The notes: generated from the letters alone by a model not told the origin. DNA of 35,502 nt from an uncultured Ilumatobacteraceae bacterium (GCA_965601935.1 CBFCWZ010000001.1:1-35502); one strand, 5' to 3'. Numbered from the stretch's first letter, positions 27,301 through 30,123 are shown. Translations and numbers: made by a program.

Positions 27301-30123
27301 GCCACGTCGTCGGGCACGACGGTCACGGTCGAGACACGCTCGAACGAGGTGTTCCCCGCGGGGTCCGCAGTCCTCTTCGAGATCGGCCCCGCCATCTCGG
27401 TCCGGACGGTCGCGACTGTTTCGGCGACGACGATCGTGCTCGTCGACCCGATGGCCCCGACCGGTGGACCGGCACTCGGACCCGACTTCGCGATCGAGAT
27501 CCTGGCAATGGTGCACGACGACCACGACGGGCGGATCGCCGCCGACCGCTTCATCCGTCACGTCAGCGGGAACGTCCCGGGCGACTACGGCGAATGGCCG
27601 GCGCAGATCATGGGGTTGGTCCCCCGTGCCTACTCACTCGTCGGCGACCCGGGCACAGGTGCCCCGACTCCCGAACGCGCCCCACTCGGATGGCGCTTCT
27701 TCGTCAAGCCGTCGGCCCCGGTCCCCGACCTCCACCCCGACTACCAGGACTTCTGGACTCCGCTCACGATCGGCAGCGACCACTACTGGGTGCTCTCCTC
27801 GCCGGTGCGGATCACCGAGAACGACGGCACGCTCCGCTGGGAGCCCGACCTCGACAACACCCATCCACGTCGCCACACCCAGTCGATGGCCACTGCGCCA
27901 GGTGTCCACGACTTCGAGGTCGACGTGCGCGCCTTCGCCAGAGCGACACCTGCCGTGCAGCGTCCACTGCCCGGCGGCGCGCCGGTGTTCTGTCGACCCG
28001 CCGAGACGCAGGTGCCCGACGAGCCGCGGATCCGCTGGAGCCTCGGCGACGCGCTCGACGAACACGAACTGGCGCACACCGTGCAGAACATCTACTGGGG
28101 TCCGCTGCTCGGCGCCCTTCCACTGCAGGGCCTGTTCCGCACGACCGCCGACACGTTCGCCGCCGCCGGGAAGGAGCGCCCGGACTGGATGCTGTGGCAT
28201 CCCTTCGATCACCTCGACGACAGTGTGGGGTTCGACGACACCAACGTCTTCGAGATGCTGAGCATGGCCGGGTTGATGCAGCTCGTCTGGACCTTCGTGA
28301 TCCTCGGCCCGGCACTGGGCGACGACGACGCACAGCGGCGCCTGCTCGCCCTCAACTTCTCCGACTGGGGGCAGGTGTTCAACCCCGTCAACCAGCAGAT
28401 CATCAACCACATCCCCGAGGTCGACCCCGACGCGGACGCGGGCGACCGTTGGGGGCTGTACTTCGCCAACCTCGCCGCGAGGGCACTCGACATGCGGAGC
28501 TGGACGCCGCTCATCGGCATGGTGCCGCTGCTGCTCCCCGACGGGCCGACGAACCCACTCGAGCAACAGGCCAGCCGGTGGACCGGCGACATCTACTCCA
28601 CGCTCCTCACGGTGGACGACGACAACAACCGCACCCTCCGCCTCCGGCTCGGCAATGCGCTACTGGTCGAGAACCGCGACGCCGACCGGTCGATCTCCCT
28701 CGGTGAGAGCGTGAGAGTGATGATCTACCTCAACATGCTCGACCGGTACCTGCCGTACGATCGCTGCGACGCCCCGACCGAGCTCGTCCACCTGATCGAG
28801 CGCTTCGCCCGTGGCCGCAACGTGGACTTCGTCGACATCCGGCTGACGGCGGCCCCGGGCGGCGGACCGGCCCTGCTCCGGCCCGATCTGGTCGCCGACA
28901 CGAGCCTCCTGACGGCGCGCCAGGTGCAGGGACCAGAACTCCCCGACCCGGCGAACCCGGGGAGCGCGATCCGTGTCGACTACGACTTCGTCGAGGTACC
29001 GGTCGGGCGGCGGCTCGAGCCGACACCGCGGAGCATGACACCCGCGGGGCCGGCCGTCACGCGGGCGATGGGCTTCTACTTCGTGCCCAACAGCGAAGGC
29101 ACCTACACCTTCACGGCCTGGGACGGGTTCCGCAACACGGGCGACCTCGACCCGTTCACGTACACCGCGACGGTGACGGTGGCCGGCGAAGTGAAGGTCG
29201 ACGATGACGACGTCGAGTGGGTGATGCCACTGGCCGCGGCCACGGCCGGCCCCCCGCCCCCGATTCCGAGTGGCGACGTCTCGCGGATGACCACACAACG
29301 CGCCCACCTGGCAGTGACCGGCCAGGACACGACGGACTGGATCGCCGAGGCCGACGGCGCCGTCTCGGTGGAGCGCGTCGCCGGTGGACGGGGTTGGACA
29401 CTCGTGTTCGGGGACCCTGGTGGCGGTCTCCCCGTCCGCAACCGGGTCCGCGTCTGGCGGCCGGTCCGCGGGGACGACCCTGAACTGTTCGACTTCGAGC
29501 ACCGCGACGAGCCGACCCGAGCCGGTGTCCGCTCCTACCTCGACGAGGAGTTCTGGATCCCGGTCCGCGACTTCTCCGTGGAGACCACCGAGATCCCGGT
29601 GCTCGCCGACACGACGATCTCCGCTGCGGACGAGCACATCCGCAACCTGCCGCTCGACGTGGCCGGCGCCGGCCGCATCGTCGTGACTCCGACGGACGGC
29701 CGGACCCTGGTCCACGAGCAGGCCGACGACGAGCGAATGGACCTCTGGCGGTTCGAACTCGGCGGAACCAGGGCGCTCGAGGCGTCACTCACCTTCCGCG
29801 TGCGGGTCACGTTCGGCCGCGGTGCCGTCACGGTGGACCGCGACTTCGACCTCACCGTCGACCCCAACTTCACGATCGACACACCTGCGGCCGGTGGCCC
29901 CTACGTCGTCAGCGAGGCGGGCGGCCCGCTCACGCTCGAGATCGACGGCGGGACGGCCCCGTTCGAGGTGACCGGCGATCTGCCCGACGGCGTGACAACG
30001 TCGGTCGCCGGCTCGACGATCACGGTGACGGCAGACGCCACCGCGTCGCCCGGCTCAGCCATGCTCGTGATCGAAGACGCCGCCGAACACCTCGGCATCC
30101 GCTCGCTGCGTGTCGAACTGTGA
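24352..30123 (+). CDS. Giant multidomain protein (1923 aa) with a short YD/Rhs-repeat region plus Rhs-core-like motif, hydrophobic helices, four tandem beta modules, an HELAHTVQ metallopeptidase-like signature and an Ig-like C-terminus
   Basis: ATG at 24352, 1 nt after the previous stop. YD-type repeats include HRYERDARGRLVAW and YRYDSLDQLVAVDHPDGRRTEMGWDALGRRVWV. The Rhs-core-like end is FGHMADRSSGLICVGCRLLDPETASFLTPDPW (aa 409-440). Hydrophobic segment WGNFFLSLILAPTWGFPLTSLSVFFFLPLDIYLELAGLIAFIF (aa 491-533). DEHELAHTVQNIYWG has its HExxH at 28063-28077. The C-terminus FTIDTPAAGGPYVVSEAGGPLTLEIDGGTAPFEVTGDLPDGVTTSVAGSTITVTAD looks like a 'putative Ig' domain. The first 112 codons of track ORF 24016-30123 overlap the preceding gene and are not part of this CDS. 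Confidence 0.8.
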   Translation: MTEVRIHDAARGTRRIERADGSILLLDRDDRRRTFRLCDDAGPLLSLRADGESVVGDDPTGTTTVGRQGHSTRVERRTADGRSTTARMVLRIDRDEAGRPTRVTVPGSASDLHVRPTGAGRWRVETDDGGLVVELASSGEHGRAVRFANGWGWDERASAGKVVALPTDGGRGVTTELDRGGRVVGRVGVDGISHRYERDARGRLVAWSGPAEVRWEFRPSEEDRPDAIIAVSTDGRRRRVRTDTVGRTTALTGGGRPTVRHEHDAAGRRTVRRAETRATRYRYDSLDQLVAVDHPDGRRTEMGWDALGRRVWVSTDGERLDEHRDVDGRLWAVTDADGRAIHTFLWWEGRVIARLDGPVGTPVAEAYLTDPLGTLVAVATPGADGSWRTDDTIGNPYGRITAPYRPTVFGHMADRSSGLICVGCRLLDPETASFLTPDPWHGGPDDPRVLAGATPHELARGRESPGTSTHPVAISRFDPLSRPDLDGHFAWGNFFLSLILAPTWGFPLTSLSVFFFLPLDIYLELAGLIAFIFTDHPWPHHSFVNMKGLAGSTTLGTAALALNGFLPRAIAGGGVGNDRAVTIGHVAWENRHYFTMLDRACVLMLQDVAGAPAADGTPDGGATAFSRTARGSIVVVESVDDDNRRWIHGSWWTRGGGNRVAVRGTDQAFEDHATDGAAHTSGSILLAQPMREVMAAPREPDDDGRVTVTEYPVHATVSSRGEIMRDQWFAIAVSNDTGLAGGDAIRIRVGDDDIEPAFAGIQGVLTGDTPILLLDSTLPSRFQVDSFRTSIEVTELSVASGSAAGSSAGWTAPPVTAETPANRSLTTAAPGHRVRVGDVVAITPTPTTPSAEQPVVYGEIRTVRADLDLTVAPPAGIDAANAFLLAPDGTVGRGTVPDPAGDPATVTVTGDHDFEIDDMIAVHPAAGDPHHAVATNVTAAADGSPATLTLDPPIPGAVVSVAGAAVRLARLHAADRDRDTGEVATSSGTTVTVETRSNEVFPAGSAVLFEIGPAISVRTVATVSATTIVLVDPMAPTGGPALGPDFAIEILAMVHDDHDGRIAADRFIRHVSGNVPGDYGEWPAQIMGLVPRAYSLVGDPGTGAPTPERAPLGWRFFVKPSAPVPDLHPDYQDFWTPLTIGSDHYWVLSSPVRITENDGTLRWEPDLDNTHPRRHTQSMATAPGVHDFEVDVRAFARATPAVQRPLPGGAPVFCRPAETQVPDEPRIRWSLGDALDEHELAHTVQNIYWGPLLGALPLQGLFRTTADTFAAAGKERPDWMLWHPFDHLDDSVGFDDTNVFEMLSMAGLMQLVWTFVILGPALGDDDAQRRLLALNFSDWGQVFNPVNQQIINHIPEVDPDADAGDRWGLYFANLAARALDMRSWTPLIGMVPLLLPDGPTNPLEQQASRWTGDIYSTLLTVDDDNNRTLRLRLGNALLVENRDADRSISLGESVRVMIYLNMLDRYLPYDRCDAPTELVHLIERFARGRNVDFVDIRLTAAPGGGPALLRPDLVADTSLLTARQVQGPELPDPANPGSAIRVDYDFVEVPVGRRLEPTPRSMTPAGPAVTRAMGFYFVPNSEGTYTFTAWDGFRNTGDLDPFTYTATVTVAGEVKVDDDDVEWVMPLAAATAGPPPPIPSGDVSRMTTQRAHLAVTGQDTTDWIAEADGAVSVERVAGGRGWTLVFGDPGGGLPVRNRVRVWRPVRGDDPELFDFEHRDEPTRAGVRSYLDEEFWIPVRDFSVETTEIPVLADTTISAADEHIRNLPLDVAGAGRIVVTPTDGRTLVHEQADDERMDLWRFELGGTRALEASLTFRVRVTFGRGAVTVDRDFDLTVDPNFTIDTPAAGGPYVVSEAGGPLTLEIDGGTAPFEVTGDLPDGVTTSVAGSTITVTADATASPGSAMLVIEDAAEHLGIRSLRVEL

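Follow-up and report, generated by a model that had tools for sequence, protein, structure and literature searches.

Organization of the RHS giant gene

The window analyzed here is a 35,502-nucleotide stretch of DNA from an uncultured Ilumatobacteraceae bacterium (GCA_965601935.1, CBFCWZ010000001.1:1-35502). It contains a cluster of phage tail-like genes that ends in a giant gene of the RHS family, and the 1923-amino acid (aa) product of this gene carries, in mid-protein, a metallopeptidase-like domain with an HExxH motif. The assignment of the giant gene is based on its open reading frame (ORF), start codon, G+C content at third codon positions (GC3, 0.88 in the frame 24352-30123) and homologues. 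Its ATG (24352) is located one base past the TGA stop of the upstream gene, which encodes a 1097-aa protein. The giant gene is divided into the following features:

24352-30123, plus strand: RHS-family giant gene carrying the HExxH domain (1923 aa; ORF, start codon, GC3, homologues)
24352-25812, plus strand: N-terminal short RHS/YD-repeat region, aa 1-487 (Pfam, NCBIfam and PDB matches)
25831-25956, plus strand: hydrophobic segment, aa 494-535, directly after the RHS end motif (Kyte-Doolittle)
27937-28671, plus strand: HExxH…E domain, aa 1196-1440 (conservation, AlphaFold2 model)
27994-28131, plus strand: block 1 of the domain, aa 1215-1260, a strand then a long helix, with the pattern (A/S)Lx(E/D)HExxH(T/A/V)xQxxxWGP
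28501-28599, plus strand: block 2 of the domain, aa 1384-1416, with the pattern SWTPxxG…(PDG)…F-L-E-Q-Q-A-S-R-x-S-G-D-x-Y, holding the PLLLPDG string
28672-30120, plus strand: conserved C-terminal region, aa 1441-1923, without a Pfam match or recognizable enzyme domain

A search with the post-RHS part of the protein against 5.8 billion proteins found 18 full-length homologues (34-59% identity), which, where they are named at all, are called “YD repeat-containing”, “hypothetical” or “LysM domain-containing protein” (P0007). Two alignments were used for comparison: a close alignment of 19 full-length sequences (37-61% identity) and a diverse alignment of 44 relatives (21-73% identity).

The RHS repeats in aa 1-487 are recognized by Pfam (RHS_repeat, PF05593, E 4.5e-8 to 8e-10), which matches no other family in the giant protein, NCBIfam matches the giant protein with YD_repeat (TIGR01643, E 3e-9) and RHS_core, and the sequences of solved Rhs cores in the PDB are matched as well (E 4.5e-9). 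The RHS region ends at the Rhs core C-terminal motif in a variant form (…LLDPETASFLTPDPW…RFDPLSRPDLDGH), in which the DPxGL-type motif reads RFDPLS, with an invariant DP at 478-479. Judged by the canonical motif, the end of the array (aa ~419-487) is what we take to be the Rhs core end motif. Residues D428, D438, P439, W440, D478, P479, D484, D486, G487 and H488 of this region are invariant in the 19-sequence alignment. The segment that follows, aa 494-535, is the most hydrophobic stretch of the giant protein (Kyte-Doolittle peaks of 1.55 and 1.95) and looks, from its sequence, like a two-helix membrane-like hairpin; L496, L500, T503, W504, G505, F514, F516, P518, Y522, E524 and L528 are invariant within it.

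After the putative hairpin, a conserved region extends to about aa 700, and a less conserved, apparently β-rich stretch then precedes the HExxH domain. Mean column identity is 61% over aa 1196-1440 and 46% over the whole protein; this domain and aa 401-680 are the best-conserved stretches. The C-terminal region, aa 1441-1923, reads as β-rich, with an immunoglobulin (Ig)-like appearance. Some relatives have further domains appended at the C-terminus: a tyrosinase domain in P0001, from a Nitriliruptorales metagenome-assembled genome (MAG) (E 4.7e-31), and PLD-like domains in P0029, P0030 and P0058 (E 1e-12 to 1e-16). Pfam detects no C-terminal add-on domain of the tyrosinase or PLD type in the window protein. 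By analogy, the layout resembles that of a polymorphic toxin, in which a constant N-terminal part is followed by a peptidase in line and, in some members, by a variable enzyme at the C-terminus. The Occultella relative P0007, named LysM protein in UniRef, has an unassigned C-terminal extension of ~170 aa.

Conservation of the HExxH motif and of a second block

The HELAH sequence encoded at 28063-28077 (aa 1238-1242) is the sole HExxH in the 1923-aa protein. An earlier note on this DNA had described, at 28063-28539, a zinc-peptidase signature followed by hydrophobic helices and the PLLLPDG string. The plus-strand translation (HELAHTVQNIYWGPLLGALPLQGLF…VFEMLSMAGLMQLVWTFVILGPALG…WTPLIGMVPLLLP) matches that description of the residues. 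PLLLPDG is present as well, but it occupies 28525-28545, and an end at 28539 stops at P1396, with D1397 lying at 28540-28542. The note's estimate that a bare HExxH would occur by chance in a few percent of such proteins was borne out (5.6% of 20,000 composition-preserving shuffles), while HExxHxxQ appeared in only 0.065% of 20,000 composition-preserving shuffles of the giant protein. Since the HExxH is conserved across relatives, its chance occurrence is irrelevant.

Residues H1238, E1239 and H1242, which the note had put forward among the residues to check for conservation, are invariant in all 19 close and all 44 diverse sequences. In the close alignment they are accompanied by invariant L1240, Q1245, N1246, W1249, G1250 and P1251, and further on by E1301, S1304, P1396 and the string E1404-Q-x-A-S-R; D1397 is kept in at least 90% of these sequences. 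The columns that stay invariant among the 44 relatives are P1222, H1238, E1239, H1242, Q1245, G1250, P1257, W1384, G1389, E1404, A1407, G1412 and Y1415, and include neither D1397 nor E1301. When 1.84 billion cluster representatives were searched exhaustively with an HMMER profile, only 70 proteins were returned at E<=1e-3. Fragments aside, these are long proteins, and those that were scanned carry RHS repeats. Every profile match that covers block 1 has the HExxH, save one repeat-protein false positive, and no degenerate HExxH was found among ~60 relatives. A 543-aa JGI (Joint Genome Institute) metagenome protein from a 6.5-kb contig (P0046) is 100% identical to the domain query over the part it covers, from aa 1381.

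Distant relatives match the domain as two separate blocks, parted by a spacer that ranges from ~50 to 450 aa and is ~140 aa long in the window protein. That block 1 and block 2 are conserved together despite such a spacer argues that they work together. In distant relatives block 2 takes the form SW-P-x-G…E-(Q/R)-x-A-(S/G)-x-x-S-G-D-x-Y, centred on the glutamate that corresponds to E1404 (codon 28561-28563), seven residues past D1397. Because E1404 is invariant in the 44 relatives, unlike D1397 and E1301, we pair it with the two histidines in a signature HExxHxxQ…E, in which E1404 is likely the third metal ligand. The earlier note had hinted at a ligand role for D1397 of PLLLPDG; this idea is not supported, as many relatives have another residue there (LINGG, WFTNQ, LIGQD and others) while E1404 is invariant, and D1397, which lies in a variable position and is replaced in distant relatives, was rejected as third ligand. 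E1301 was rejected too; it is invariant in the close subfamily (FExxS), but distant relatives do not keep it, and its position falls within the variable insert.

Predicted structure of the domain

AlphaFold2 applied to aa 1080-1490 with the 19 close homologues gave an unusable model (mean predicted local distance difference test, pLDDT, of 41). With the 44 diverse sequences, aa 1196-1440 yielded a confident, mostly helical model at pLDDT 83.7 and a predicted template modeling score (pTM) of 0.70. In this model, strands are predicted at residues 23-25 and 33-35, and are followed by a 24-residue helix (36-59) bearing the HExxH at 43-47. After this His helix come a helix bundle that makes up the insert, a non-helical segment with WTPLIGMVPLLLP, and a short helix (residues 207-216) bearing E1404.

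Gluzincins (thermolysin-like peptidases) combine HExxH with a downstream glutamate on a helix of the ExxxD type. The modeled domain would share with them an HExxH helix preceded by strands, an invariant glutamate on a later helix (E-x-x-A-S) and a nearby invariant tyrosine. It differs in that classical gluzincins are without its long helical insert, and in that it matches no solved peptidase.

All three hydrophobic stretches listed by the earlier note are present, but membrane-like hydropathy is reached in only one of them, and only at the border: aa 1299-1320 scores 1.67 on the Kyte-Doolittle scale with a 19-aa window, which is borderline for a membrane helix, and the other two stretches score below 1.3. 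In the model the stretches belong to a helical domain that looks soluble.

Relation to DUF4157

The earlier note also likened the motif to DUF4157 (eCIS_core, PF13699). Support for this kinship is no more than remote: the HExxHxxQ…E signature is present and the His helix is matched by profile comparison, but the window protein itself is without a PF13699 match at E<=10. Weak PF13699 matches were obtained in 8 of the 44 relatives (best E 0.026), all of them below the gathering score of 22 bits; the sole printed score, that of P0060, is 14.7 bits against this cut-off. PF13699 is nonetheless the most recurrent weak family among the 44, the next, matched by 2 members, being DUF6782, whose proteins are putative metallopeptidases.

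For a profile-profile comparison with hhalign, 120 PF13699 proteins were fetched with a consensus-like probe and validated by their precomputed Pfam label. The family aligned with this set at a probability of 72-87% (P 3e-5 to 4e-6) over 20-30 columns, corresponding to the His helix, with a score of 38.2, versus at most 14.7 for 24 column-shuffled controls and one reversed control. The match consists of a single helix, and other HExxH families might give a similar one. The upstream block of DUF4157 (DFSxVRVHTD…ARAYTVGxDIVF) was left unaligned, and forced longer alignments added no score. True DUF4157 proteins frequently have PGDxxE[RQ]EA[DE] ~27 aa after HExxH, which resembles PDGxxNFLEQQAS of the window protein, where the distance from HExxH to the glutamate is 162 aa. 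When block 1 and block 2 were spliced together, E1404 paired with the first glutamate of ExEA, but the score was not above that of shuffled block-2 controls, so there is no statistical support for this pairing. No ordinary short DUF4157 protein was among those reached by the exhaustive profile search that started from the window family.

The signature of the PVC-metallopeptidases is HExxHxxQ-E, with the histidines carried by the second helix and the glutamate by the third (Zhang 2012, PMC3482391), and the same authors had already noted such domains after RHS arrays. The survey of extracellular contractile injection systems (eCIS) that the earlier note referred to is that of Geller 2021 (PMC8213781), which indeed gives DUF4157 as an eCIS core domain linked to toxins. 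The window domain and PVC-metallopeptidase/DUF4157 are alike in the HExxHxxQ…E signature, with histidines on one helix and glutamate on a later one, and DUF4157 too is linked to contractile injection loci, is found upstream of variable toxin-like C-terminal domains and has published examples behind RHS arrays (PMC8213781, PMC3482391). They differ in several respects. The window family has two additional invariant features, WGP behind the motif and SGDxY behind the glutamate; DUF4157 follows a disordered loading sequence close to the N-terminus, while the window domain stands in mid-protein after an RHS array; and the window family, unlike DUF4157, is very rare and bound to one protein architecture. 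The HExxH…E family falls outside PF13699 and is most sensibly regarded as a family of its own, distantly related to DUF4157.

The gene cluster and its distribution

The giant gene is the last of a tail-like cluster that spans 2512-30123 and is flanked by genes for PhoX (11-2338) and a LacI-type regulator (32677-33747). The upstream genes of the cluster are as follows:

5698-24350, plus strand: upstream gene set of the contractile-injection-system cluster (Pfam, PHROG, synteny)
5698-7392, plus strand: sheath (Pfam/PHROG; C-terminus recognizable)
7412-7792, plus strand: candidate tube, 126 aa (MPTIFAANESS…), placed by its position after the sheath; without a Pfam, PHROG or NCBIfam match
7838-9172, plus strand: 444-aa ORF with a Pro/Ser/Thr/Ala-rich low-complexity middle, with the tube candidate before it and the VgrG-like gene after it; no family match
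ending at 11488, plus strand: VgrG-like spike (VgrG OB domain)
11488-11889, plus strand: PAAR (Pfam/PHROG)
11886-12422, plus strand: gp25-like (match below cut-off)
12419-14131, plus strand: baseplate wedge (PHROG 6, E 2e-39)
21057-24350, plus strand: 1097-aa protein (Baculo_PEP_C at 29 bits, below cut-off; PHROG 1204 “tail protein”, E 1e-3)

Seven genes without a family match lie between the baseplate wedge and the RHS gene, the last of them encoding the 1097-aa protein; in all, about ten cluster genes go unmatched by Pfam, PHROGs and NCBIfam. Nor did these three databases reveal an AAA+ ATPase, a tail terminator or a tube family anywhere in the cluster. With sheath, VgrG, PAAR, gp25 and wedge genes ahead of the RHS gene, the locus is a contractile-injection-system cluster, of an atypical type. 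The cluster may represent an undescribed lineage of contractile injection systems (CIS).

A scan of one genome per species (185,579 species) with the 19-sequence alignment found 13 loci. The hosts are an Ilumatobacteraceae MAG and members of Nitriliruptorales, Occultella, Mycobacterium/Mycolicibacterium, Agromyces, Microbacterium and Actinophytocola, together with two MAGs from outside the actinobacteria, one of Proteobacteria and one of Acidobacteriota. The closest locus, from an uncultured Ilumatobacteraceae MAG, shares 87% identity in the domain. The homologue also closes the gene series in Mycolicibacterium agri and Occultella glacieicola: the genes ahead of it are the same, with products of 423, 167, 317, 523, 303, 538 and 1092 aa, and those downstream of it differ. 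By tblastn, the upstream genes are syntenic in the 10 actinobacterial loci for which the upstream flank was retrieved; they are not in the Microbacterium locus L014, and the contig of L004 is truncated. The 1097-aa neighbor is also kept in the Proteobacteria and Acidobacteriota MAG loci. As its gene accompanies the RHS/HExxH gene across loci, the two look like a functional pair. No relatives were found in the IMG/VR viral contigs.

Downstream of the giant gene, the ORFs 30133-30723, 30227-30811 and 31380-32480 have no family matches. The first of these (30133-30723), the sole one compared, has no counterpart in the related loci; hence no conserved immunity-like gene adjoins the giant protein.

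The window protein resembles Rhs/YD-repeat polymorphic toxins, such as the Rhs effectors of type VI secretion systems and TcB-TcC, in having RHS repeats, a core end motif and a C-terminal region after it, in the swappable C-terminal enzymes (PLD, tyrosinase) of its relatives, and in the PAAR and VgrG genes of its cluster. It departs from them in four ways: the RHS part is only ~480 aa long, too short for the usual cage; the post-RHS part, ~1440 aa, is not variable but conserved; neither a PAAR nor any other known N-terminal trafficking domain is present in the protein; and its gene has no conserved immunity gene next to it. As the very large product of the last gene of a phage tail-like cluster it is also comparable to terminal toxins of the type of Afp18, from the Serratia antifeeding prophage. 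The comparison with large terminal toxins of eCIS operons draws in part on the survey of Geller 2021 (PMC8213781). It differs in that neither an AAA+ ATPase nor a tail-terminator or tube family can be detected in the window cluster, and in that the window protein, instead of being lineage-specific, is conserved across genera and phyla.

Interpretation of the HExxH domain

On balance, aa 1196-1440 probably form a gluzincin-type metallopeptidase-like domain, remotely related to DUF4157. We propose that in the CIS-associated RHS giant it is the peptidase responsible for processing or release, or else the effector itself. The motif and its invariance, the co-conserved glutamate block, the rarity of the family, its architecture and synteny, and the remote similarity in the His helix were observed; metal binding, a ligand role of E1404, catalysis, the substrate and delivery are inferred.

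The proposed arrangement is as follows. On the long helix with HExxHxxQ, H1238 and H1242 would bind a metal, presumably zinc, with E1239 as the general base, and the short downstream helix would supply E1404 (E-x-x-A-S) as the third ligand, which is the gluzincin arrangement; a helical insert of variable length would part the His helix from the Glu helix. Along the protein, a short RHS array, the Rhs end motif, the hydrophobic hairpin, a conserved core, the HExxH domain and the conserved C-terminal region follow one another, and the gene for the whole is conserved as the last one in a contractile-injection-system cluster that is itself very divergent. The domain could then act as an in-line peptidase, like the PVC-metallopeptidase/DUF4157 of eCIS toxins, and cut either the giant protein itself or a partner. 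If delivered by the injection system, cleavage during or after delivery might release or mature the C-terminal part, which is PLD-like or a tyrosinase in some relatives. For proteins without an add-on enzyme, including the window protein, the peptidase may itself be the effector activity.

Several results weigh against this interpretation. The window protein gave no PF13699 match at E<=10, whether searched whole, as sub-segments or as the domain alone, and the similarity to DUF4157 is confined to the His helix, with block 2 adding no score. The window protein has no peptidase match in Pfam, NCBIfam or the PDB sequences. Foldseek found no fold neighbor of the model in the PDB and BFVD (best E 1.9, TM score <=0.2) and no peptidase. 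Conservation extends over the entire protein, C-terminus included, and no conserved immunity gene follows, which would fit a core structural or anchoring part as well as a toxin. DUF4157 itself is without demonstrated protease activity and is dispensable for the loading of AlgoCIS cargo (bioRxiv 10.64898/2026.05.27.728243).

The main competing explanation, which we regard as unlikely, is that the conserved residues form a metal site of another kind, either one that stabilizes a helical scaffold or one belonging to some other hydrolase or transferase. The giant protein would then be no processed toxin but a part of the injection machine with a structural or anchoring role. Zincins have a fuller substrate-binding sheet before the His helix, and the model has only two short strands there and no zincin fold neighbor. 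Searches of the PDB sequences with the whole protein and with two profiles returned only Rhs cores or noise (such as JMJD5, E 0.7, and YizA, E 3.3), the sole match for HExxHxxQ being a weak, insignificant one to a DinB-like protein (E 3.3). Full-length conservation at 34-87% identity, the same upstream genes in 10 actinobacterial loci, the 1097-aa neighbor in the Proteobacteria and Acidobacteriota MAGs, and the want of a conserved immunity gene are all consistent with a structural component, and the hydrophobic hairpin at aa 494-535 could anchor the protein in a membrane. It is the missing fold neighbor, the full-length conservation and the missing immunity gene that keep this explanation alive. 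Against it, E1239, which in zincins is catalytic rather than a ligand, is invariant, and structural sites rarely keep such a glutamate. The PLD and tyrosinase add-ons of the relatives look effector-like, and HExxHxxQ-E is the signature of a family predicted as peptidases (PMC3482391).

It is rather improbable that the domain is a bona fide member of DUF4157/eCIS_core that is too divergent for Pfam and has the same role as in other eCIS cargo. The shared signature, the hhalign probability of 72-87%, the weak PF13699 matches in 8 of 44 relatives and the CIS locus would all be expected of such a member. They are offset by the failure of the window protein to match PF13699 at E<=10 and of its relatives to reach the cut-off, by the unaligned upstream block, by a glutamate 162 aa away rather than ~27 with a block 2 that adds no score, by the exhaustive search, which reached no short DUF4157 protein, and by the position of the domain in mid-protein after an RHS array. 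A further doubtful proposal, to which we give a similarly low weight, makes the RHS giant not a cargo toxin but a conserved core subunit of an undescribed CIS lineage without a detectable ATPase, which would occur in Actinomycetota, with outliers in Proteobacteria and Acidobacteriota. The protein would then be anchored by its hairpin, and the HExxH domain would be a metal-dependent hydrolase of new fold, without a structural neighbor, that acts on the cell envelope or on the injection machine, for instance by switching assembly or firing.

Very unlikely, in our view, is a membrane-active translocation module, whose amphipathic and hydrophobic helices would insert into a target membrane and bring the C-terminal part through it, the metal site having a regulatory or trigger function. 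Translocation domains of large toxins are often helical and without sequence neighbors, and the window domain has a helical fold with one buried hydrophobic helix at aa 1299-1322 and lies upstream of optional enzymatic domains. However, its invariant residues are of a polar or catalytic type (H, E, H, Q, E, Y) rather than hydrophobic, and the hydrophobic insert is the least conserved part, varying from 50 to 450 aa. Finally, an intramembrane site-2-type (M50-like) protease, at which the earlier note hinted and in which HExxH and the PLLLPDG aspartate would be set in transmembrane helices, is effectively refuted and merits almost no credence: its only grounds are the HExxH, the nearby hydrophobic stretches and a P-x-x-x-P-D-G string faintly like NxxPxxPLDG, whereas Peptidase_M50 gave no match at E<=10 in the protein, its segments or the 44 relatives, the segments are not transmembrane (His helix and WTPLIGMVPLLLP below 1.3 on the Kyte-Doolittle scale), the PLLLP segment is non-helical in a compact helical model, and D1397 is not conserved.

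No other marker of eCIS toxins is as specific as DUF4157/PVC-metallopeptidase (PMC8213781). The present domain family is absent from Pfam and NCBIfam and has no solved relative and no structural neighbor, but its signature and setting tie it to the known PVC-metallopeptidase-like domains of injection-system toxins. It keeps HExxHxxQ…E in a very different setting: it stands in mid-protein after an RHS array, a large insert comes between its His helix and its Glu helix, and the divergence of the surrounding cluster leaves most genes there without a family match. Should the domain be an active peptidase, it would offer an independent system for the long-standing idea of a “releasing peptidase”, and injection-system effectors would extend to Actinomycetota lineages that standard eCIS searches have missed. 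The family has culturable hosts, for example Mycolicibacterium agri and M. senegalense.

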